Of a stretch of DNA of 8,062 nucleotides, positions 1-8,062 are shown piece after piece. How positions within the stretch are numbered: position 1 is the first letter of the stretch; every line of letters starts with the position of its first letter. The stretch is from a virus (lineage: Duplodnaviria > Heunggongvirae > Uroviricota > Caudoviricetes). The notes beneath the pieces are model-generated. The model ran no database searches. It saw only the letters and a list, made by a program, of their open reading frames with translations, and was not told where the DNA came from. The translations under genes were made by a program, and so were the position numbers. The stretch lies in IMG/VR virus record IMGVR_UViG_2802429244_000020, one strand, 5' to 3'.

Positions 1-1014
1 TTACTCTACTGTGGACACTGTGTGGACACTCTCGGCCTCAGTACCACCTCTCAGCGGATTAAGAGAAATGGCGTCCTGAAGGTACTCTGGAGCAAAATGA
101 GCGTAAACCATAGTTTGCTCAATCCGCGTGTGACCTAGTATCCGTTGTAGCGTGATAATACTTCCTCCATTAATCATGAAATGAGTGGCAAAGCTGTGCC
201 TTAGTGCATGTGTGGCTTGCCCCATTGGCAAATCCGGTTTTATTGCTTTCATTGTTCGTCTGAAGCGAGGGTAATCAGCATCAGGGAATAAAAAACCTCG
301 TTTGTTATCCGCGATCATTTTGGCAACAGCCTCTGAGATCGGGACGGTGCGTGGTTTGTTTGTTTTCGTTTTAACAAACGTGACGCGGTTATGAATGATA
401 TTTTCTGCTTTCAAACGAGCTGCTTCTCCCCAACGTGCTCCAGTACTCAGGCAAAGAATCGCAATCTTTTTGTTGTCGCCGTCAAGAGCTGCGAGCAGTA
501 AGGCAATTTCTTCCTGCGTGAGATAGCCTGTGTCTGGTTTTTCCTCCTTAAGCCTTTTTGTCCCTCTGATAGGGTGCTCACCAAAGTATAACTCCGCTTC
601 AATCAGGGCTGTAAACATGCCGCTAATACATGTTAAATCACGATTGATACTCGAAGGTTTAATACCCTGACTTCTTCGGGTGGCGCAGTATTGGCTGATA
701 AGCGATTTCGTAATTTGAAATGCGCATGGGTCATTCGTTATTTTTGTGAAGATTTCAATTTTTCCAAGATTAGATTTCCCATGCTCTTCGTGTTTACCCT
801 TTAAATCCCACCAGATCTGTGTCAGCTCCGACAGACGTCGCTTGTCTGTTGGTTTTGATAGCCATTCTTTATTGTGGTGGTTGTACAACGTGTATTTCTC
901 GAAAGCGACAGCTTCGCTTTTCTTATCAAACTTCCTACGGATGCGTTTTCCATTACGTCCAGTAGGGCGGATGTCCACTTCATATCGACCATCATCGAGT
1001 TTTTTGATTGCCAT
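1..1014 (-). CDS. int: P2-type tyrosine integrase (site-specific recombinase), complete, 337 aa
   Basis: Full ORF on minus strand: ATG at 1014..1012, stop TAA at 3..1. GGAGG lies 8 nt upstream of the ATG on the minus strand. C-terminal tyrosine-recombinase motifs are visible in the translation: ARWGEAARL (Arg box), HALRHSFATHF (HxxR), LGH and TMVYAHF (catalytic Tyr). N-terminus MAIKKLDDGRYEVD is typical of P2-family Int. Confidence 0.95.
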   Translation of the reverse strand: MAIKKLDDGRYEVDIRPTGRNGKRIRRKFDKKSEAVAFEKYTLYNHHNKEWLSKPTDKRRLSELTQIWWDLKGKHEEHGKSNLGKIEIFTKITNDPCAFQITKSLISQYCATRRSQGIKPSSINRDLTCISGMFTALIEAELYFGEHPIRGTKRLKEEKPDTGYLTQEEIALLLAALDGDNKKIAILCLSTGARWGEAARLKAENIIHNRVTFVKTKTNKPRTVPISEAVAKMIADNKRGFLFPDADYPRFRRTMKAIKPDLPMGQATHALRHSFATHFMINGGSIITLQRILGHTRIEQTMVYAHFAPEYLQDAISLNPLRGGTEAESVHTVSTVE

Positions 1015-1129
1015 CAGAAAACCCTCCGAGTGGTGTGTTTTTTTGCGACTACTAATCGTTTTTTTCGTGGTGGCTGAAATTTAGCCACCAATAGTAGGCA
1101 CTTGTGATGAATATATTCACGATGAATTG

Positions 1130-1429
1130 TTAACCAGTCTTTTGACCGGAGTGGGGCGACGTTGTTTCGTTTTGCCCAAAGTGTGCGAGAGCGGGCGCAA
1201 TTTGCCCGGACTCAGGAGCGATCTGATTTGTCATGAACCATAAAGTGTATTTGGTGAATTGTGGGGTCTGCAGGATGTTCATCATGACATCTGTTGGAGG
1301 TGTTGAACGACCACTTTCATAGTAACTCAGCGTGCCATACGGAACCCCTGTTAAATCAGCAAGTTGTTGTCTGCTCAAATACTCTGATTTTCGCATTAAG
1401 ACTATCTTCTCGCTTATCGTGTTTGACAT
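1130..1429 (-). CDS. C: Immunity repressor C (P2 C-like, 99 aa, HTH)
   Basis: 99-aa minus-strand ORF immediately upstream of int and divergent from cox. The N-terminal segment LSRQQLADLTGVPYGTLSYYESG looks like a helix-turn-helix. Size and position match P2 repressor C; the ATG (1429..1427) overlaps the -35 of the rightward promoter. Confidence 0.9.
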   Translation of the reverse strand: MSNTISEKIVLMRKSEYLSRQQLADLTGVPYGTLSYYESGRSTPPTDVMMNILQTPQFTKYTLWFMTNQIAPESGQIAPALAHFGQNETTSPHSGQKTG

Positions 1430-1451
1430 GGTGTTTAGATCTCAATAGTAT
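1423..1451 (+). promoter_or_regulatory. Early promoter Pe candidate: -35 TTGACA (1423-1428), 17-nt spacer, -10 TAGTAT (1446-1451)
   Basis: Perfect consensus -35 hexamer with a 17-nt spacer to a TAnnnT-type -10, oriented toward cox. The -10 sits between the two operator repeats, as described for P2 Pe. Confidence 0.55.
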
Positions 1452-1462
1452 TTAGTTTAGAT
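1433..1462. promoter_or_regulatory. Operator for repressor C: two exact 8-bp direct repeats GTTTAGAT (1433-1440 and 1455-1462), 22 bp centre to centre
   Basis: Exact direct repeat read from the sequence, flanking the putative Pe -10. P2 C is known to bind two 8-bp direct repeats flanking the Pe -10. A further TTTAG unit is at 1451-1455 and a degenerate TTTAGTG at 1471-1477. Confidence 0.6.
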
Positions 1463-1492
1463 GTAGATTGTTTAGTGCTTGGATGTGGGCAC

Positions 1493-1520
1493 TAAAAGGC
1501 ATTATAAGGCATTAAACGCA
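1493..1520. promoter_or_regulatory. Three tandem cox-box-like repeats (TAAAAGGCA 1493-1501, TATAAGGCA 1503-1511, TTAAACGCA 1512-1520)
   Basis: Three 9-bp direct repeats at roughly 10-bp periodicity, fitting the T(T/A)(A/T)AA(G/C)NCA pattern I recall for P2 Cox binding sites. They overlap the candidate Pc -10, consistent with Cox repressing Pc. The consensus is from memory. Confidence 0.45.
1501..1506 (-). promoter_or_regulatory. Leftward lysogenic promoter Pc candidate: perfect -10 TATAAT on minus strand
   Basis: Plus-strand ATTATA at 1501-1506 is TATAAT on the minus strand, pointing toward C/int. No good -35 is found at 16-18-nt spacing, so this would be a weak promoter. It is about 50 bp from the Pe -10 on the opposite strand, giving the face-to-face arrangement known for P2. 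Confidence 0.4.
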
Positions 1521-1543
1521 ATTCATGAGGGCTGGAGGACGAC

Positions 1544-1819
1544 ATGAGCAAGCAAGTAACACTCATGACTGATGCGATTCCTTATCAGGAGTTCGCAAAA
1601 CTAATAGGAAAATCGACAGGAGCGGTTCGTCGGATGATCGATAAAGGAAAGCTGCCTGTAATTGATATGACCGATCCACAATCAGCTTCAGGTCGTGCAG
1701 GTGAATATTGGGTATATCTTCCGGCATGGAATAACGGACTAAAACTGGCTTATGAAAGCCGCCCTAAAGAGATTCGTGACGGCTGGTTGATGTGGTTAGG
1801 TCTTGGTGAACCACGTTAA
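1544..1819 (+). CDS. cox: Cox (excisionase / developmental-switch repressor of Pc), 91 aa
   Basis: First gene of the rightward operon, divergent from C. GGAGG at 1534-1538, 5 nt before the ATG. 91 aa, matching the size and position of P2 Cox. Confidence 0.9.
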   Translation: MSKQVTLMTDAIPYQEFAKLIGKSTGAVRRMIDKGKLPVIDMTDPQSASGRAGEYWVYLPAWNNGLKLAYESRPKEIRDGWLMWLGLGEPR

Positions 1820-1829
1820 GGAGAACCGT

Positions 1830-2000
1830 ATGAATGAGCCTCGTTGTATTGCTCAGTTATTGCGTAACGAAAGCCCCAGGGCGATTGACTTCAACATCAC
1901 CCACGGTAAGGGGCGTAAGGGAATCATTATCCGCACCAAAAAACAGAGTCCGTTAAAAAAGGTTCTGACCTTTCTGAAAAGCCGGAGGGTATGGAAATGA
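1830..2000 (+). CDS. Small basic hypothetical protein (56 aa) between cox and B, P2 orf78-like position
   Basis: The ORF track starts at a TTG at 1803; the first ATG with a Shine-Dalgarno (GGAG 1820-1823, 6-nt spacer) is at 1830. Lys/Arg-rich. Stop TGA 1998-2000 overlaps the B start codon. Confidence 0.6.
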   Translation: MNEPRCIAQLLRNESPRAIDFNITHGKGRKGIIIRTKKQSPLKKVLTFLKSRRVWK

Positions 2001-2497
2001 CAGTGATGACGCTCAATCTCGTTGAAAAACAGCCAACAACTATGCGCCGGATAATTGGTAAGCATCTGGCCGTCCCTCGCTGGCAGGAGACATGCGATTA
2101 TTATAATCAGATGATGGAACGCGAACGGTTAACGGTTTGCTTCCATGCGCAGTTAAAACAACGTCACGCAACGATGCGTTTTGAAGAAATGAACGACGTC
2201 GAACGTGAACGGCTGGTTTGTGCAATTGATGAACTGCGCGGGGCATTCTCAAAACGCCGTCAGGTCGGTGCAAGTGAGTATGCATATATTAGTTTTTTAA
2301 CAGTCAGTCAGCGTCGTACTTTATTTATGCATGCGGGATTGACAGAAAAAGAATTCAATCAGCCGTACTGGCGCATTAATGAAGAATCATGTTACTGGCG
2401 TGATGCTTTATTCCGTGCATTACGTGAATTATTCAGCCTGTTTGAGTATGCACCGACAATTCTGACGTCGGTAAAACCAGAGCAATATCTGCATTAA
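1997..2497 (+). CDS. B: Replication protein B (P2 B-like, 166 aa from the ATG at 1997)
   Basis: ORF after cox in conserved P2 order. Three in-frame ATGs (1991, 1997, 2006); 1997 has the best spacing (8 nt) from GGAGG at 1984-1988 and gives 166 aa, the size I recall for P2 B. ATGA overlap with the upstream stop. Confidence 0.8.
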   Translation: MTVMTLNLVEKQPTTMRRIIGKHLAVPRWQETCDYYNQMMERERLTVCFHAQLKQRHATMRFEEMNDVERERLVCAIDELRGAFSKRRQVGASEYAYISFLTVSQRRTLFMHAGLTEKEFNQPYWRINEESCYWRDALFRALRELFSLFEYAPTILTSVKPEQYLH

Positions 2498-2560
2498 GTA
2501 ATTAACCAGAGTTTTTAACGCACTTAATTGTGCGGGGCTTCTTTTTGCCTGGAGAAAGTC

Positions 2561-2785
2561 ATGCATACAGTTTCTGAAAATCAGTGCGGTAAATACGCAT
2601 TACTGCTGCAACAGGCCAGAACCGAAGCACAGGCTGATGCTGCGACGCGCTTTTCTTCTCATCTTGACGCCATGATTCGCCACATCACAAAGGCGGAGTT
2701 ATCCCGCGTGGAGATAGTCGAGCTGCTCAGTCAGGAGTCGGAAAAATTTCACAATATCGGATTGTCTCGCGGGGAGGTGCTTTGA
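2561..2785 (+). CDS. Hypothetical early-operon protein (74 aa)
   Basis: The ORF track starts at a TTG at 2528; the first ATG at 2561 is preceded by GGAG (2551-2554, 6-nt spacer). About 50% G+C like the core. Stop TGA 2783-2785 overlaps the next ATG. Confidence 0.65.
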
Positions 2786-3087
2786 TGTCCTGTTCTCATT
2801 CAGTTGTATTACTGAATAACGCCTTAAAAATCGCCGTTATGAAAAATGGCGATTTGTCTCTTATTCAACTTTGTCTTGATAAAGAAAAACGCGACATAAC
2901 TGAATCTGTTATCGCGATTTATCAGAATGAATTAAACCTACTGTCTGATGTGGTCAATTTACTTGTTAAACGCGCTGTATTCCACAAGCAAGTTTCCTCC
3001 GTGGATGAACTAACAAAATTAACGACAGAAATCGCCAGTTATTGCGCTGATGAATTTAAGAAACTGAACGACAAAAGGAACTGGTAA
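2785..3087 (+). CDS. Hypothetical protein (100 aa), markedly AT-rich
   Basis: ATG at 2785 with GGAGG at 2773-2777 (7-nt spacer); the track's 2782 start is a TTG. Hand-counted G+C of two 60-nt lines inside it is about 32-35%, against about 53% in the flanking ORF. TAATG overlap with the next gene. Confidence 0.65.
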   Translation: MSCSHSVVLLNNALKIAVMKNGDLSLIQLCLDKEKRDITESVIAIYQNELNLLSDVVNLLVKRAVFHKQVSSVDELTKLTTEIASYCADEFKKLNDKRNW

Positions 3088-3311
3088 TGCCGGACAACGT
3101 AGATTTTATTCAGGAACAACAGGCTGAATTACTGGAGCGTCATATTAATGCGGCAAGGGTAAAACATTGCGGTGTTTCTGCGCTGGTTTGTGAAGAGTGT
3201 GACGCGCCAATACCTGCTGCCCGTCGTGCGGCTTATCCGTCAGCCACGCGTTGTGTTTCCTGCCAGTCAGTCTTTGAAGCAAAAAACAAGCATTACCGGA
3301 GAATGGCATGA
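3087..3311 (+). CDS. TraR/DksA-family C4 zinc-finger protein (74 aa)
   Basis: Two CxxC pairs (CEEC and CVSC) separated by about 17 residues in the C-terminal half, the usual DksA/TraR C4 arrangement. AGGA 7 nt upstream of the ATG. Proteins of this type are common in P2-like early operons. Confidence 0.7.
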   Translation: MPDNVDFIQEQQAELLERHINAARVKHCGVSALVCEECDAPIPAARRAAYPSATRCVSCQSVFEAKNKHYRRMA

Positions 3312-3586
3312 GTATTCGTATCGAAATTGGCGAACGTTATGTCGTTACCAGTGACAGCTTTCAGTTTATTCTCCACGAGAAAAAGAGAGCGGAAAGCGGT
3401 AAAAACGCCGGTCAGGAATGGCTGGCGGTGGTTGGTTATTACCCGAAATTAAGCCAGCTCGTTTCCGGCCTGATGCATCACGATATTCTGACCGGAAGCG
3501 CAAAGTCTTTTGCTGATTTAAACGCGCAGGTTGAGCAACTCAGCAAGCGTTGTTCAGAGGCGTTCTCCAGAGGAGCGTCTGAATGA
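3308..3586 (+). CDS. Hypothetical early-operon protein (92 aa)
   Basis: ATG 3308 overlaps the upstream stop (ATGA). GGAG at 3298-3301 with a 6-nt spacer. No recognisable motif. Confidence 0.65.
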   Translation: MSIRIEIGERYVVTSDSFQFILHEKKRAESGKNAGQEWLAVVGYYPKLSQLVSGLMHHDILTGSAKSFADLNAQVEQLSKRCSEAFSRGASE

Positions 3587-4590
3587 TTACTGATGCTCGT
3601 TGCCATACTGAAAATACCATCAATGTTATTTTTGTTTCAGGTGGAAAGGACAGCCTTGCTCAGTGGCTTGTCGCTATTGAAGAAAATGTACCCATATTGC
3701 CGGTTTTTGCTGATACGGGACATGAACATCCACAGACAATGAAATATCTGGATTATCTGGAAAAACGGCTTGGCCCAATTAAAAGGGTCAGGGCTGATTT
3801 TTCCTGCCGGATTGAATCAAAGCGCAAGTTTATCCAGACCAAATGGCCTGATTTGTTGGTTAACGATTGTGGAATGTCGGAAGAAGAAGCGCACCAGCGC
3901 ATCAGTTGTGCGCTGGAAATTCTCAAACCAACGGGTATCCCGTTTCTTGATTTGTGTCTGTGGAAGGGGCGTTTCCCATCAACCAAAGCCAGATTTTGCA
4001 CATTTGAACTGAAACATGAGCCCGTGCGTTCTCAGGTAATATTGCCTTTACTCAATGAATTTGAGGAAGTGATTAGCTGGCAGGGAGTGCGTGCTCAGGA
4101 ATCGCCATCACGCGCTGCTTTACCTGTCTGGGAAGAGGATGCAGACAACACCCCCGGATTGCATGTATATCGCCCGATTTTGCACTGGAAGCATGAAGAT
4201 GTATTTGCAATAGCCAGAAGACATGACATTAAGCCAAATCCGTTATATCAGCAGGGGTGTGGCCGTGTTGGTTGTATGCCATGTATTCATGTCCGTAAAT
4301 CTGAACTGGCAGAAATTTTTCGCCGGTGGCCGGAGGAAATAAAACGGGTTGCTGAATGGGAACGACTGGTTGCGTCGTGCTCCCGTCGGGGAAATTCCAC
4401 TTTTTTCCCATCCACACATGATCCGCTACGCGCAGAACGTCGTATTGAGATTGTAACAGTCGAGGCATACGGAATAGAAACCTACCATGACTGGACAATG
4501 ACAACGCGTGGGGGTACTCAGTTTGATTTACTGGCTTCGGCGAATGATAAAGCCGTTTGCAGTAGTGTCTATGCCGGTGTATGTGAATGA
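3583..4590 (+). CDS. PAPS-reductase-like PP-loop ATP-pyrophosphatase family protein (335 aa)
   Basis: N-terminal FVSGGKDS matches the SGGxDS PP-loop motif of the PAPS reductase / adenine-nucleotide alpha-hydrolase superfamily. Cys-rich C-terminal segment QQGCGRVGCMPC. AGGAG at 3571-3575 (7-nt spacer); ATGA overlap at both ends. Confidence 0.8.
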   Translation: MITDARCHTENTINVIFVSGGKDSLAQWLVAIEENVPILPVFADTGHEHPQTMKYLDYLEKRLGPIKRVRADFSCRIESKRKFIQTKWPDLLVNDCGMSEEEAHQRISCALEILKPTGIPFLDLCLWKGRFPSTKARFCTFELKHEPVRSQVILPLLNEFEEVISWQGVRAQESPSRAALPVWEEDADNTPGLHVYRPILHWKHEDVFAIARRHDIKPNPLYQQGCGRVGCMPCIHVRKSELAEIFRRWPEEIKRVAEWERLVASCSRRGNSTFFPSTHDPLRAERRIEIVTVEAYGIETYHDWTMTTRGGTQFDLLASANDKAVCSSVYAGVCE

Positions 4591-6872
4591 GTCATTCTTT
4601 CCAGGAGCAATACACCTGCGTACCTCCGTCTGCGTTTGCCGCAGGCACCGGTAAGGCGTTTACCGGTGCTTATGCATGGAACGCGCCACGCGAGGCTGTC
4701 GGGCGCGAAAGACCCCTTACACGTGACGAGATGCGTCAGGTGCAAAGTGTTTTATCCACGATTAACCGCCTGCCTTACTTTTTGCGCTCGCTGTTTACTT
4801 CACGCTATGACTACATCCGGCGCAATAAAAGCCCGGTGCACGGGTTTTATTTCCTCACATCCACTTTTCAGCGTCGTTTATGGCCGCGCATTGAGCGTGT
4901 GAATCAGCGCCATGAAATGAACACTGACGCGTCGTTGCTGTTTCTGGCAGAGCGTGACCATTATGCGCGTTTGCCTGGAATGAATGACAAGGAGCTGAAA
5001 AAGTTTGCCGCCCGTATCTCATCACAGCTTTTCATGATGTATGAGGAACTCTGCGATGCCTGGGTGGATGCGCATGGCGAGAAAGAATCGCTGTTTACGG
5101 ATGAGGCGCAGGCTCACCTGTATGGTCATGTTGCTGGCGCTGCACGAGCTTTCAATATTTCCCCTCTCTACTGGAAAAAATACCGTAAAGGGCAGATAAC
5201 CACGAGGCAGGCATATTCTGCCATTGCCCGTCTGTTTAACGATGAGTGGTGGACTCATCAGCTTAAAGGCCAGCGTATGCGCTGGCATGAGGCGTTACTG
5301 ATTGCTGTCGGGGAGGTGAATAAAGACCGTTCTCCTTATGCCAGTAAACATGCCATTCGTGATGTACGTGCACGCCGCCAGGCAAATCTGGAATTTCTTA
5401 AATCGTGTGACCTTGAAAACAGGGAAACCGGCGAGCGCATCGACCTTATCAGTAAGGTGATGGGCAGTATTTCTAATCCTGAAATTCGCCGGATGGAGCT
5501 GATGAACACCATTGCCGGTATTGAGCGTTACGCCGCCGCAGAGGGTGATGTGGGGATGTTTATCACGCTGACCGCGCCGTCAAAGTATCACCCGACACGT
5601 CAGGTCAGAAAAGGCGAAAGTAAAACCGTTCAGCTTAATCACGGCTGGAACGATGAGGCATTTAATCCAAAGGATGCGCAGCGTTATCTCTGCCGCATCT
5701 GGAGCCTGATGCGCACGGCATTCAAGGATAATGATTTACAGGTCTACGGTTTGCGTGTCGTCGAGCCACACCACGACGGAACGCCGCACTGGCATATGAT
5801 GCTTTTTTGTAATCCGCGCCAGCGTAACCAGATTATCGAAATCATGCGTCGCTATGCGCTCAAAGAGGATGGCGACGAAAGAGGAGCCGCGCGAAACCGT
5901 TTTCAGGCAAAACACCTTAATCGGGGCGGTGCTGCGGGGTATATCGCGAAATACATCTCAAAAAACATCGACGGCTATGCACTGGATGGTCAGCTCGATA
6001 ACGATACCGGCAGACCTCTGAAAGATACTGCCGCGGCTGTTACTGCATGGGCGTCAACGTGGCGCATCCCGCAATTTAAAACGGTTGGTCTGCCGACAAT
6101 GGGGGCTTACCGTGAACTACGCAAATTGCCGCGCGGCGTCAGCATTGCTGATGAGTTTGACGAGCGCGTCGAGGCTGCACGCGCCGCCGCAGACAGTGGT
6201 GATTTTGCGTTGTATATCAGCGCGCAGGGTGGGGCAAATGTCCCGCGCGATTGTCAGACTGTCAGGGTCGCCCGTAGCCCGTCGGATGACGTTAACGAGT
6301 ACGAGGAAGAGGTCGAGAGAGTGGTCGGCATTTACGCGCCGCATCTCGGCGCGCGTCATATTCATATCACCAGAACGACGGACTGGCGCATTGTGCCGAA
6401 AGTTCCGGTCGTTGAGCCTTTGACTTTAAAAAGCGGCATCGCCGCGCCTCGGAGTCCTGTCAATAACTGTGGAAAGCCTGCCAGCAGTGATGCTTCGTTA
6501 CCGGCTCCCACACCTTCTGAACACGCCGCAGCAGTGCTTAATCTGGTAGATGACGGTGTTATCGAATGGAATGACCCGGAGGTTGTGAGGGCGCTCAGGG
6601 GGGCATTAAAACACGGCCTGAGAAGACCAAATCGCCAGCAAAGAAACGGAAGCCCGTTAAAACCACATGAAATAGCGCCATCGGCCAGACTGACCCGGTC
6701 GGAACGAATGCAAATTACCCGTATCCGCGTTGACCTTGCTCAGAACGGTATCAGGCCTCAGCGATGGGAGCTTGAGGCGCTGGCGCGTGGCGCGACTGTA
6801 AATTATGACGGGAAAAAATTCGCTTATCCGGTCGCTGATGGATGGCCAGGGTTCACAACTGTAATAGATTGA
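4587..6872 (+). CDS. A: Rolling-circle replication initiator endonuclease A (P2 gpA-like, 761 aa)
   Basis: 761-aa ORF at the conserved position. HUH-type motif HWH (nt 5787-5795, within GTPHWHMMLF) and two tyrosines four residues apart in YIAKYISK (Tyr codons 5940-5942 and 5952-5954), the hallmark of P2 A-type nicking initiators. Confidence 0.95.
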   Translation: MSHSFQEQYTCVPPSAFAAGTGKAFTGAYAWNAPREAVGRERPLTRDEMRQVQSVLSTINRLPYFLRSLFTSRYDYIRRNKSPVHGFYFLTSTFQRRLWPRIERVNQRHEMNTDASLLFLAERDHYARLPGMNDKELKKFAARISSQLFMMYEELCDAWVDAHGEKESLFTDEAQAHLYGHVAGAARAFNISPLYWKKYRKGQITTRQAYSAIARLFNDEWWTHQLKGQRMRWHEALLIAVGEVNKDRSPYASKHAIRDVRARRQANLEFLKSCDLENRETGERIDLISKVMGSISNPEIRRMELMNTIAGIERYAAAEGDVGMFITLTAPSKYHPTRQVRKGESKTVQLNHGWNDEAFNPKDAQRYLCRIWSLMRTAFKDNDLQVYGLRVVEPHHDGTPHWHMMLFCNPRQRNQIIEIMRRYALKEDGDERGAARNRFQAKHLNRGGAAGYIAKYISKNIDGYALDGQLDNDTGRPLKDTAAAVTAWASTWRIPQFKTVGLPTMGAYRELRKLPRGVSIADEFDERVEAARAAADSGDFALYISAQGGANVPRDCQTVRVARSPSDDVNEYEEEVERVVGIYAPHLGARHIHITRTTDWRIVPKVPVVEPLTLKSGIAAPRSPVNNCGKPASSDASLPAPTPSEHAAAVLNLVDDGVIEWNDPEVVRALRGALKHGLRRPNRQQRNGSPLKPHEIAPSARLTRSERMQITRIRVDLAQNGIRPQRWELEALARGATVNYDGKKFAYPVADGWPGFTTVID

Positions 6873-6978
6873 AATAGTGTGAATATCTAAGAGATAAAAC
6901 TATATAAGGTGTGTATTAATACTGTGCTGGAGGAAAAGGTGAAAACCAGATGGCATGGCTACAATAATAAAACGATAA

Positions 6979-7007
6979 GCCTCATTTTTAATGAGGCCGT
7001 TTTTATT
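6979..7007. terminator. Bidirectional intrinsic terminator candidate between A and the leftward cargo genes
   Basis: 8-bp perfect inverted repeat GCCTCATT / AATGAGGC (6979-6986 and 6990-6997) with a 3-nt loop, followed on plus by CGTTTTTATT and preceded by AATAATAAAACGATAA (a T-rich tract on the minus strand). It lies 107 nt after the A stop and about 40 nt after the stop of the leftward 223-aa gene. Confidence 0.6.
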
Positions 7008-7037
7008 ACATCAAAAGAATTGAATTGTATTGTTAAC

Positions 7038-7709
7038 TTAAAGGGCAAACCTTTCTATGGTTCGATACACCTTGTCAAAAATTTGCTCTGAAAGTGAAAT
7101 GGACCCATTTGTGTTAATTTCTAATGACTCATAACCGGTCACATCCTTAACATTAAGTTTAACTTTATCAATTGTAAAATTTGCATTTTTGAAAATGTTT
7201 CTTATTTCCATAAGTGCGTCACTTGATGACTCAAGTTCCAGTATGCCGGATGTGTGCTTGCTAAACGTTAAGTCTTTTAATTTTGCTTTGTGCACTTGTA
7301 TTTTTTCAAAGTGCGGGGTCAGGAAATAAATGAAGTCCTCAATTTTGATGTTGAGATTTGACACATTAAAATCAGAATGTGTTGATTTAATTATGTTTGA
7401 TATGAAGTTTTTAATGCTTCTGGGAGGCGACTCAATGATTAAGATGAAGTTTTTACCTTTTGTTGTGTAAAGCCAAAAGTTAAATTGAATATATTTTAGC
7501 TGTGTATATTGAGTCTCGTTTCCATATGGATCAACGATTATCTCGTTGACCTCTACTTTCTCGATGTATCGAGATGATATTGCATTTTCTTCATATGAGT
7601 TGATACTAAATCCCCAGCCTTTATCACTATCAAAAGGAGTGTTAATGATAGACTGATATAAACTATCAAGTCCAGCAGGGAAGTTGGCAGTAAACCATTT
7701 TGTTTTCAT
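7038..7709 (-). CDS. Hypothetical AT-rich cargo protein (223 aa), distal gene of a leftward operon in the post-A variable locus
   Basis: Complete minus-strand ORF. ATG at 7709..7707 is preceded by AAGGAG (plus 7715-7720, 5-nt spacer). Only 11 nt separate it from the upstream gene's stop. No Cys, no long hydrophobic segment, rich in N/I/K/F/S. No motif I can recognise. Confidence 0.75.
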   Translation of the reverse strand: MKTKWFTANFPAGLDSLYQSIINTPFDSDKGWGFSINSYEENAISSRYIEKVEVNEIIVDPYGNETQYTQLKYIQFNFWLYTTKGKNFILIIESPPRSIKNFISNIIKSTHSDFNVSNLNIKIEDFIYFLTPHFEKIQVHKAKLKDLTFSKHTSGILELESSSDALMEIRNIFKNANFTIDKVKLNVKDVTGYESLEINTNGSISLSEQIFDKVYRTIERFAL

Positions 7710-7720
7710 AACAACTCCTT

Positions 7721-8062
7721 TTATTTATCAGTAACAACCTCAATTGTGTTTGAGGCGATAATACTGTTTGAAATTTCGCGAGCGGTTTTTTCAAGTGCTA
7801 ATAATAGCAGTTTTTCCTTCTCTTTATCTACATTTTGACGATTTGCATATTCGTTTATATTTTTGTACTTATAAACACCGCGAACGATATACGAGAATAA
7901 CTTGCAATTATCTGGGTCGACAAATTGAGCCTCGAATTCATATTTGTCCGAGTCTTTATAAGTGTCAACAACAGAACTCCAAATGATTTTGGTAATATAA
8001 AATCCTTTTCCTAACAACTCTTTAAACTCGAGAGAGTCAAGAACGCTGCGCCCTTTTAGTGA
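7721..8062 (-). CDS. 3' end (last 113 codons) of a larger leftward cargo gene; 5' part lies beyond the window
   Basis: The minus-strand reading frame is open from the window edge (8062) to the TAA at 7723..7721. The track's start at 8017 is a TTG, and translation continues upstream without a stop (…SLKGRSVLDSLEFKELLGKGFYITK…). Same low G+C as the downstream gene. Confidence 0.7.
   Translation of the reverse strand, partial: SLKGRSVLDSLEFKELLGKGFYITKIIWSSVVDTYKDSDKYEFEAQFVDPDNCKLFSYIVRGVYKYKNINEYANRQNVDKEKEKLLLLALEKTAREISNSIIASNTIEVVTDK

Follow-up and report, generated by a model that had tools for sequence, protein, structure and literature searches.

What does a PAPS-reductase-like enzyme do in the replication operon of a P2-type prophage? 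The question is raised by an 8,062-nucleotide stretch of viral DNA (Caudoviricetes; IMG/VR record IMGVR_UViG_2802429244_000020), hereafter the window, in which the gene for such an enzyme lies between an orf83-like gene and the replication initiator gene A (Table 1). The original prediction, made from the letters of the DNA, described a plus-strand reading frame with an SGGxDS motif, a Cys cluster and ATGA overlaps at both ends, all of which are present as described. The encoded protein ends in ...VYAGVCE. A ribosome-binding site, GAGGAG, is located at 3570–3575, 7 nt 5′ of the start codon, and no comparable site could be read in front of gene A. Between positions 2400 and 5200, no sigma-70-like promoter was found on the plus strand, and of terminator-like hairpins only weak ones were seen. 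Lacking a promoter of its own in this region, the enzyme gene is thus expected to be expressed with the early operon.

Table 1 Features of the enzyme gene and its surroundings in the window
Feature	Position	Strand	Basis or remark
Cassette of 1055 bp absent from P2	3565..4619	+	blastn of window against P2; takes the place of 35 bp of P2
orf83-like gene (DUF5405), 92 aa, upstream	3308..3586	+	PF17399, E=5e-14; 99% identity to P2 orf83
PAPS-reductase-like PP-loop enzyme gene	3583..4590	+	335 aa ORF; ortholog of phage 186 orf84
ATGA overlap, orf83-like stop and enzyme start	3583..3586	+	ATG 3583-3585, TGA 3584-3586
PP-loop codons S19-G-G-K-D-S24 (ATP pyrophosphatase signature)	3637..3654	+	read from sequence
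Invariant Cys139 codon, motif F-C-T-x-x-L-K144	3997..3999	+	homolog conservation
Cys cluster C226-x4-C231-x2-C234	4258..4284	+	within residues 225-234, G-C-G-R-V-G-C-M-P-C
C-terminal tail C326...G332-V-C334-E335	4558..4587	+	penultimate Cys conserved; low-confidence, flexible tail
Predicted RNA stem GGUGUAU/AUACACC around A start codon	4576..4616	+	weak prediction
ATGA overlap, A start and enzyme stop	4587..4590	+	ATG 4587-4589, TGA 4588-4590; translational coupling junction
Replication initiator gene A, 761 aa, rolling-circle nickase	4587..6872	+	PF05840, E=5.8e-123; 97% identity to P2 gpA

Alignment to P2 by blastn gave 97.8% identity over positions 1–3564 of the window and 95.9% over 4620–6871. 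Between these segments, the cassette spans the enzyme gene in full, together with the final 7 codons of the orf83-like gene on one side and the opening 11 codons of A on the other. P2, Wphi and L-413C do not have the enzyme gene, in agreement with the original view that it is not a classical P2 function. It is also accessory rather than core, being carried by 44 of 5426 complete Escherichia coli genomes, as against 1735 with a match anywhere in the window. Alleles at least 99% identical in DNA to that of the window are present in about 25 E. coli genomes. Proteobacterial prophages contain thousands of members of the enzyme family as a whole. A foreign base composition was considered and rejected, the GC content of the gene (0.45–0.49) being the same as that of the neighbouring early genes. 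The locus contains a real, intact accessory gene that immediately precedes the replication gene A in a P2-type prophage.

The gene has a long-known counterpart. Phage 186 carries orf84 (NP_052288.1), which is 76% identical in amino acid sequence over residues 2–335, the full length of the protein, also lies between a DUF5405 gene and A, and has the same ...GVCE-stop/ATGA junction. By contrast with 186, the flanks here are P2-type (97% identity to P2), A shares only 36% identity with 186 A, and the gene came as a cassette. The original prediction had overlooked orf84, the same gene at the same place. Any novelty that it implied falls away, since orf84 was annotated decades ago and is on record as non-essential (186 record; PMC10269572). 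The 186 record describes orf84 as 'not essential; translation to end of orf84 appears necessary for translation of A', and this non-essentiality is the sole biochemical or genetic test on record for the orf84 subfamily. The enzyme gene is thus the counterpart of a familiar but functionally unexplained gene and is itself no discovery. Closer relatives, at 82% amino acid identity, are the PAPS reductase family proteins of Yersinia phage P37 and of 'Peduovirus P2' OU784746, both P2-like phages with the gene directly before A, although the allele differs from that of the window. More distant is gp57 of Burkholderia phage phiE125 (PHROG 424; 44% identity over the full length), which is encoded in the early/replication region and keeps every invariant residue, including the C-terminal Cys-Glu, but has a DNA methyltransferase and a ParB-like protein as neighbours instead of gene A.

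The assignment to the PP-loop proteins of the PAPS reductase superfamily, made in the original prediction, was upheld by a profile search and by structure. Pfam PF01507 (PAPS_reduct) matched residues 15–236 far past chance (E=5.4e-35; 121.4 bits against a cut-off of 22.5), PHROG 424 matched residues 1–334 (E=7e-86), and the core fold superposes on solved members of the superfamily. The AF2 model has a pLDDT of 92.3, falling to a mean of 59 in the last residues. Outside the reductase core, it contains an extra helical insert (residues ~74–128) and a C-terminal domain (~239–335). A search of viral folds in BFVD gave no matches beyond distant short-form PAPS reductases and QueC, and was uninformative for the C-terminal domain. 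Membership of the QueC family was rejected, as the match is limited to the first ~60–70 profile positions around the PP-loop. A weak PDB match to 21fy_C ('PptA'; E=1.4e-4) was also recorded. The longer homologs P0125 and Alfacinha1 gp49 have N-terminal extensions in which no Pfam domain was found.

Conservation was assessed in 121 diverse homologs, down to about 40% identity. The canonical PP-loop SGGKDS is 88–94% conserved; G21, D23 and S24 are invariant in a further alignment (A1), and the enzyme keeps all 24 of the invariant columns of that alignment. C139 is present in every homolog (100%) and is also invariant in A1. Within the Cys cluster, C231 (100%) and C234 (98%) are conserved, and C226 (7%) is not. 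The tail is likewise maintained (C334 98%, G332 92%, E335 88%, C326 80%), with a family consensus C-terminus of YGLCE. C231 and C234 correspond in alignment to the CxxC at the [4Fe-4S] site in the APS reductases of Mycobacterium tuberculosis and Pseudomonas aeruginosa. The Cys-Cys pair of these reductases aligns to P147-V148, and the invariant C139, 8 residues upstream, might stand in for the missing ligands. Taken together, the PP-loop, C139, C231-x2-C234 and the G-x-C-E tail suggest an ATP-dependent sulfur-transfer enzyme of the Fe-S type.

To examine the genomic setting, we drew related loci from IMG/VR and GTDB genomes. Among relatives at 63–100% identity, the gene directly upstream is a DNA methyltransferase in 31 of 75 distinct neighbours (30 D12-class Dam and 1 N6_N4), and most upstream genes overlap the enzyme gene by 4 nt; the methyltransferase pattern holds in 13 of 33 clusters formed at 90% identity. 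In 73 distant proteobacterial prophage loci, a DNA methyltransferase is again the commonest nearest large neighbour (11/54 upstream, 9/53 downstream), the remaining neighbours being replication genes. Annotated phages show the orders MTase-PAPS (phiE125) and MTase-PAPS-MTase (Rivra), and in L010 a Dam gene overlaps the PAPS gene. Because the adjoining methyltransferases come from unrelated families (D12, PF05869, N6_N4 and C5), the association points to DNA modification in general, although some of it could reflect an accessory-gene slot that the two kinds of gene share in early operons. Elsewhere the enzyme gene is found without A, beside replication genes of the DnaB, O, P and SSB type. ParB-like genes adjoin or lie near the homologs in phiE125 and Riah, and HTH_ParB occurs in 2 of 75 upstream neighbours. 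Neither the window nor 186 has a neighbouring methyltransferase or a partner of the DndA/D/E or SspB/C type.

We tentatively favour, at somewhat less than even confidence, an early-expressed accessory enzyme of DNA modification or anti-restriction, the 3′ end of whose gene also couples translation of A. The modification role put forward in the original prediction is plausible, backed by the methyltransferase adjacency and by a phage cassette with a PAPS-Dam fusion. This cassette, from Vibrio crassostreae podophage 44E38.1, confers resistance to Dnd and is the only experimental tie of a PAPS-reductase domain to defence evasion (bioRxiv 10.1101/2021.05.05.442762). There, a phage protein physically joins a PAPS-reductase domain to a DNA adenine methylase; however, the domain is a short form of ~175 aa from a distant branch, and the effect belongs to the two-gene cassette rather than to the domain alone. 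The short-form domain was not recovered as a homolog of our enzyme at E<=1e-5, so any transfer of function is loose.

For the mechanism, we adopt the model of DndC and SspD, which are reported to combine an ATP pyrophosphatase activity with sulfur-transfer chemistry (PMC12707154). The enzyme gene would be transcribed from the early promoter, in lytic growth only, together with the replication genes. With its adenine-nucleotide alpha-hydrolase fold and canonical SGGKDS, the protein would bind ATP, adenylate its substrate and release pyrophosphate. C139, C231 and C234 probably hold an iron-sulfur cluster, and C334, on the flexible C-terminal tail, is probably a mobile nucleophile or persulfide carrier. 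We infer that the substrate is replicating phage DNA, on which the enzyme, often acting beside an orphan DNA methyltransferase, would place a sulfur-containing (or other adenylation-dependent) mark; the mark would guard against host defences that read modification status. In a more specific form, which we regard as rather unlikely, the orf84 family would be a stand-alone phage enzyme for DNA sulfur modification, one protein that by itself writes phosphorothioates or thio-bases. It would use the host cysteine desulfurase and act on replicating phage DNA, often with an orphan Dam (a Dam-orf84-A module), be co-translated with the rolling-circle initiator and give P2/186-like phages resistance to modification-reading defences such as Dnd, Ssp or BREX type 4.

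Several observations bear on DNA as the substrate. With partners and methyltransferase missing from the window, one protein would need to locate and modify DNA unaided, and its near-neutral pI (6.5), the lack of a recognisable DNA-binding domain and a weak DndC score count against such a role. The first two of these properties fit instead a PP-loop/Fe-S enzyme that acts, by thiolation or otherwise, on tRNA or other RNA, a small molecule or a protein. Structural relatives of the enzyme include the tRNA thiolases TtuA and NcsA, the lysidine synthase TilS, the sulfur transferase LarE and Cap9, and candidate targets are, for example, a replication factor or, on the pattern of the QueC-like Cap9 modifying a CD-NTase, a host defence protein. 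Translational coupling would also supply such an enzyme in a fixed ratio to A, but the gene occurs without A as well, so A is no obligatory target. Given the recurrent adjacency to, overlap with and, in a distant branch, fusion to DNA methyltransferases of unrelated families, we consider a non-DNA substrate unlikely. The usual 'viral cysH' reading, a role assumed in several papers, would make the enzyme a genuine PAPS or APS reductase that raises assimilatory sulfate reduction during infection; we consider it highly improbable. CysH and APS reductases are the best matches among solved structures, DTG and G-x-R-x-x-E/Q-S-x-x-R motifs are common to the enzyme and CysH, and the APS-reductase-like CxxC and the tail cysteine are reminiscent of the reductases, the latter of the catalytic Cys of CysH. 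Yet the superposition covers only ~180 of 335 residues, and all four curated profiles score far below their cut-offs (PRK02090, 67.4 against 154 bits; TIGR00434, 46.7 against 165.1; TIGR02055, 53.1 against 235.3; TIGR02057, 39.9 against 254.2). Where CysH has a degenerate SSSFGIQA, the enzyme has the ATP-type SGGKDS, and the APS reductase Cys-Cys pair falls on non-cysteine residues. CysH carries a C-terminal catalytic E-C-G-[LI]-H motif, whereas the enzyme ends in GVCE. Sulfur-assimilation genes were never among the neighbours of the relatives examined, which are DNA methyltransferases and replication genes, and E. coli already has cysH.

A place among known defence enzymes was likewise considered. 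DndC, SspD and BrxP have the superfamily, a canonical PP-loop and probable Fe-S cysteines in common with our enzyme, which differs in being phage-borne, stand-alone and expressed lytically. The likeness to DndC and BREX-associated proteins noted in the original prediction does not extend to membership, as curated cut-offs are missed widely and partner genes are absent. TIGR03183 gave 21.3 bits against 290.4 required for DndC, and the PADLOC DndC profile matched residues 132–214 only (E about 1e-7); nor does the context fit DndC, whose gene clusters with dndA/D/E and often with dndFGH, the neighbours here being P2 early genes and A in the window and methyltransferases and replication genes in 127 related loci. 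The best PADLOC matches, SspD (2.7e-21; 74.5 bits) and BrxP (8e-13; 45 bits), are confined to profile positions 73–216 of 277 and 212–336 of 779, respectively. These matches, together with the ParB-like genes near some homologs, could speak for a Dnd-, Ssp- or BREX-4-like defence module of the lysogen, or for an IbrA-like co-activator of prophage genes with a ParB-like partner. IbrA-type proteins (COG3969) combine PAPS_reduct with a C-terminal DUF3440 and act with the ParB-like IbrB. Here PF01507 is the sole Pfam domain at E<=0.01, with no DUF3440, and a ParB-like gene is absent from the window, as is any Dnd, Ssp (SspB/SspC), DUF4007 or BREX partner gene. Moreover, a gene without its own promoter in a repressor-controlled early lytic operon should be silent in the lysogen, and we give this pair of explanations very little credence.

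The 3′ end of the gene has a role of its own. The original claim of translational coupling to A is strengthened by the comparison of loci: among 56 related loci with an A reading frame, 48 retain an (A/G)TGA overlap, across A proteins that are 29% to 98% identical, and the 186 record ties translation of A to the end of orf84. The absence of a comparable ribosome site in front of A fits coupling, and the A start codon lies inside the predicted stem (minimum free energy of 4575–4685, −41.2 kcal/mol; z=-2.4 against shuffles). Ribosomes finishing the enzyme gene would reinitiate at the overlapping A start, such that the initiator would be made only after full upstream translation. This cis role, shown in 186, is conserved here. 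It might even be the whole function, with a dispensable protein and a reading frame that serves as a translated leader, bringing ribosomes to a weak A start and setting A expression, as the non-essentiality of 186 orf84 could suggest. In P2, orf83 overlaps A and does the same job, which speaks for a leader and equally shows coupling in a phage that lacks the enzyme gene. For a leader, however, 335 codons and catalytic residues invariant down to 40% identity, in a family of thousands, would be superfluous, and the family is conserved equally in phages without a following A gene. We therefore regard a leader-only function as improbable and the coupling role as real but additional to that of the protein.

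Among the accessory genes of phages, prophages and conjugative plasmids that still lack an explanation, PAPS-reductase-like genes are some of the most common, and virome studies routinely tag them as a 'cysH auxiliary metabolic gene'. For the orf84 family, the ATP-type PP-loop, the missing CysH motifs and the methyltransferase and replication neighbours argue against that label. The P2 and 186 versions belong to the temperate phages of E. coli with the most developed genetics, so the function of the enzyme can be tested there directly.

The gene lies at the position originally predicted, between an upstream DUF5405 gene (orf83-like) and the replication initiator gene A, and each flanking stop/start pair overlaps, placing ATGA at both ends. 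A ribosome-binding site, GAGGAG, stands 7 nt 5′ of its start; no comparable site was found when the start region of A was read. Residues 19–24 of the product read SGGKDS, residues 225–234 G-C-G-R-V-G-C-M-P-C, and the C terminus ...C326SSVYAGVC334E. The profile search proposed with the original prediction placed the protein in PAPS_reduct (PF01507) far above the Pfam cut-off (E=5.4e-35, 121 bits versus 22.5), which together with SGGKDS confirms a PAPS-reductase-like PP-loop protein with a Cys cluster.

Features of the window, module loci and conserved enzyme residues (percentages over 121 diverse homologs)
Feature	Position	Strand	Remark
orf81-like gene	2782..3087		DUF5405, E=1.5e-33
Upstream DUF5405 gene (orf83-like)	3308..3586	+	DUF5405, E=5e-14; TGA overlapped by enzyme-gene ATG
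Enzyme gene	3583..4590	+	335 aa
Gene A	4587..6872	+	ATG overlapped by enzyme-gene TGA
Cargo gene, 223 aa	7038..7709	-	PADLOC 'Hp3' 6e-8; PHROG 5850
Cargo gene, C-terminal 98 aa, runs off the window	7721..>8062	-	PADLOC 'Hp2' 1.5e-8, profile positions 266-353 of 359; PHROG 6531
Dam-orf84-A module, IMG/VR loci L018, L026, L042, L056, L081 and others	about 3100-4000		upstream of PAPS-like gene
PP-loop	S19-G-G-K-D-S24		88-94%
Motif	D44-T-G-x-E48		88-97%
Residue	D123		98%
Residue	C139		100%
Residue	K144		100%
Motif	G168-x-R170-x-x-E173-S174		96-99%
Motif	N219-P-L-Y222		88-100%
Motif	R228-V-G-C231-x-P-C234		93-100%; C231 100%, C234 98%
Residue	K239		93%
Residue	E260		98%
Extreme C terminus	G332-x-C334-E335		G332 92%, C334 98%, E335 88%
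Residues	C125 and C326		each about 80%
Residue	C226		7%, not conserved

The window covers the early region of a P2-type prophage, with the gene order int, C, cox, B, orf80–83 homologs, enzyme gene and A. Positions 1–3564 and 4620–6871 are 97.8% and 95.9% identical to P2, respectively, and the intervening 1,055 bp (3565–4619) stand where P2 has 35 bp. This segment takes in 7 codons from the end of orf83, the complete enzyme gene and 11 codons from the start of A; the gene thus arrived as a cassette with its own coupling junction. It is absent from P2, Wphi and L-413C, as expected if it is not a classical P2 function. Megablast detected it in 44 of 5,426 complete E. coli genomes, a lower bound as regards divergent alleles, while some part of the window matched in 1,735; this marks an accessory rather than a core gene. 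In GC content it equals the adjoining early genes, and a scan of the + strand from 2400 to 5200 found no promoter-like site. Expression should come only from the repressor-controlled early promoter, in lytic growth.

Elsewhere in the window, the two DUF5405 paralogs flank a DksA/TraR-type zinc-finger gene (3087..3311). The orf83-like gene carries the PHROG label 'replication initiation protein' (phrog_154); the 186 record lists its DUF5405 gene as non-essential. Directly after A, positions 6872–8062 hold AT-rich cargo (GC 0.32–0.34 versus 0.45–0.58 elsewhere) where P2 has orf91/tin/old. This cargo recurs in E. coli 401651 as three genes for hypothetical proteins (223, 370 and 354 aa), flanked by A and the portal gene; it seems distantly related to the '3HP' (three-hypothetical-protein) defence cargo that occupies P2 hotspots. 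The related prophage of that strain (L176) lacks the PAPS-like gene, and an IS3-family transposase gene adjoining its hotspot cargo overlaps the annotated A 3′ end by ~30 nt (9347–10575).

The enzyme gene is a P2-backbone copy of phage 186 orf84, hence an already known gene. The 186 protein is 76% identical and occupies the same slot, between a DUF5405 gene and A, and the 3′ end ...GGTGTATGTGAATGA is identical between 186 and the window. The 186 record describes orf84 as 'unknown function; not essential. translation to end of orf84 appears necessary for translation of A protein', and a published phage paper also calls the 186 PAPS reductase non-essential (PMC10269572). In IMG/VR relatives (63–100% amino-acid identity of the enzyme), an A homolog, 29% to 98% identical to the window's A, usually follows. 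The downstream ATG or GTG overlaps the enzyme-gene stop as (A/G)TGA at 48 of the 56 loci with a long ORF downstream, the start codon of A arising from the conserved terminal Glu codon (GAA/GAG) plus TGA. Predicted translational coupling to A is thus upheld by the 186 record and by this overlap. A second role of the gene, ribosome delivery to A, rests on the 186 genetics and the conserved junction. A predicted stem surrounding the A start (4576–4582 with 4610–4616, z=-2.4) hints weakly that coupling may depend on RNA structure. Further downstream, ~60 nt into A, lies a perfect 9-bp hairpin (CACCGGTAA ggcgt TTACCGGTG; 4646–4668) that is also present in P2. The 186 record annotates a terminator, tM1, ~85 nt into its A, which is reported to stop transcripts if A is untranslated; no T-run follows the window hairpin, so a terminator role is doubtful.

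Searching a large protein set yielded 5,826 homologs at E<=1e-5, and a 99%-identical cluster holds 185 sequences. At E<=1e-30, 308 cluster representatives (50% identity) match. The AF2 model has a pLDDT of 92.3, falling to 59 in the last residues, which would place C334 on a flexible tail. Family-specific parts are a helical insert (about 74–128) and a C-terminal domain (about 239–335).

The neighbourhood of the gene is the most informative result. Among 75 distinct upstream neighbours drawn from P2/186-like viral contigs, 30 are D12-class Dam methyltransferases (MTases) and one is an N6_N4 methylase, followed by DUF5405 (6/75), as in the window; most overlap the PAPS-like gene by 4 nt. Counted by motif, 13 of the 33 clusters formed at 90% identity have an MTase upstream. 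Many P2/186-like prophages carry Dam MTase, orf84-like enzyme and A as three translationally coupled genes; in the window and in 186, a DUF5405 gene replaces Dam. Among more distant relatives (73 proteobacterial prophage loci), the nearest large gene on the same strand is most often a DNA MTase (11/54 upstream, 9/53 downstream), the others being DnaB, GPA, SSB, lambda-P-like and VapE replication genes and integrases. The order is MTase-PAPS-ParB in phiE125 and MTase-PAPS-MTase in Rivra; in S1, Parlo and Alfacinha1, MTases lie at most two or three genes away, and at locus L010 a PF05869 Dam overlaps the gene. As these MTases belong to unrelated families, the gene is linked with DNA modification as such rather than with any single partner protein. 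Roughly a fifth of phages have a methyltransferase among their dozens of genes, so that chance adjacency would, as a rough expectation, reach a few percent at most, although common residence in the early accessory slot could inflate the figure.

Two further settings were observed. In Escherichia phage phi458 (L007), a 31%-identical, 414-aa homolog is annotated 'putative transcriptional regulator'; the gene after it (4679–5278, -), in the opposite orientation, encodes a small protein with a SAM-dependent methyltransferase fold (Methyltransf_11/25) rather than a classical DNA MTase. A distant (~26% identity) PAPS-reductase-family gene occurs on 1,477 plasmids, mostly conjugative Enterobacterales plasmids (for example, NC_019158.1 3734–4336; NZ_CP133877.1 2596–3198), in many records within the first 2.6–4.3 kb; these plasmid genes are a further mobile-element lineage of the superfamily.

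Several papers label such genes 'viral cysH auxiliary metabolic gene'. The enzyme misses all curated cut-offs for CysH and APS reductase, its PP-loop keeps the canonical form, in contrast to SSSFGIQA in CysH and SFSGAEDV in APS reductase, and the ECGLH motif is absent; the label is therefore poorly supported for the orf84-type family, and a role in sulfate assimilation is improbable. In alignment with solved reductases, the cluster CxxC of APS reductases matches C231/C234, and the reductase Cys-Cys pair falls on P147-V148. Partial PADLOC matches extend to SspD (2.7e-21), BrxP (8e-13) and DndC (1e-7), but the DndC curated cut-off is missed (21 versus 290 bits) and the window holds no partner genes of the three systems. 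The proposed DndC-like or BREX-associated kinship is thus not supported. Of the original interpretation, superfamily, coupling and accessory status are borne out, and the MTase company makes a role in phage DNA modification plausible.

Motifs, homology and context suggest a mechanism that we hold tentatively, at somewhat less than an even chance. The enzyme would bind ATP at the PP-loop and adenylate its substrate, replicating phage DNA; C139, C231 and C234 would hold an Fe-S cluster, and the tail cysteine C334, aided by C326, would shuttle sulfur or attack the activated intermediate, shielding the phage against host systems that read DNA modification. Reviews credit DndC and SspD with sulfur transfer in phosphorothioation (PMC12707154; PMC12839542). 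Only one experiment ties a PAPS-reductase domain of a phage to a phenotype: a Vibrio podophage escapes Dnd by means of a PAPS-Dam fusion cassette (bioRxiv 10.1101/2021.05.05.442762); its domain is a distant short form relative to the enzyme. Phage homologs were termed unexplained in 2024 (PMC11437467), and a 2026 NAR paper proposed an anti-defence role for PAPS reductases in Aca-regulated operons (PMC13551039). Of the other readings, a substrate other than DNA (tRNA, a small molecule or protein) is unlikely yet the most credible. That the gene is merely a translated leader is less likely still, given that its catalytic residues are conserved over long range and the family also occurs where no A follows; sulfate assimilation ranks slightly lower, and an IbrA-like regulator or prophage defence module is very improbable. 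As the Dam-orf84-A module resides in genetically tractable phages, the function of the orf84-type family is testable.
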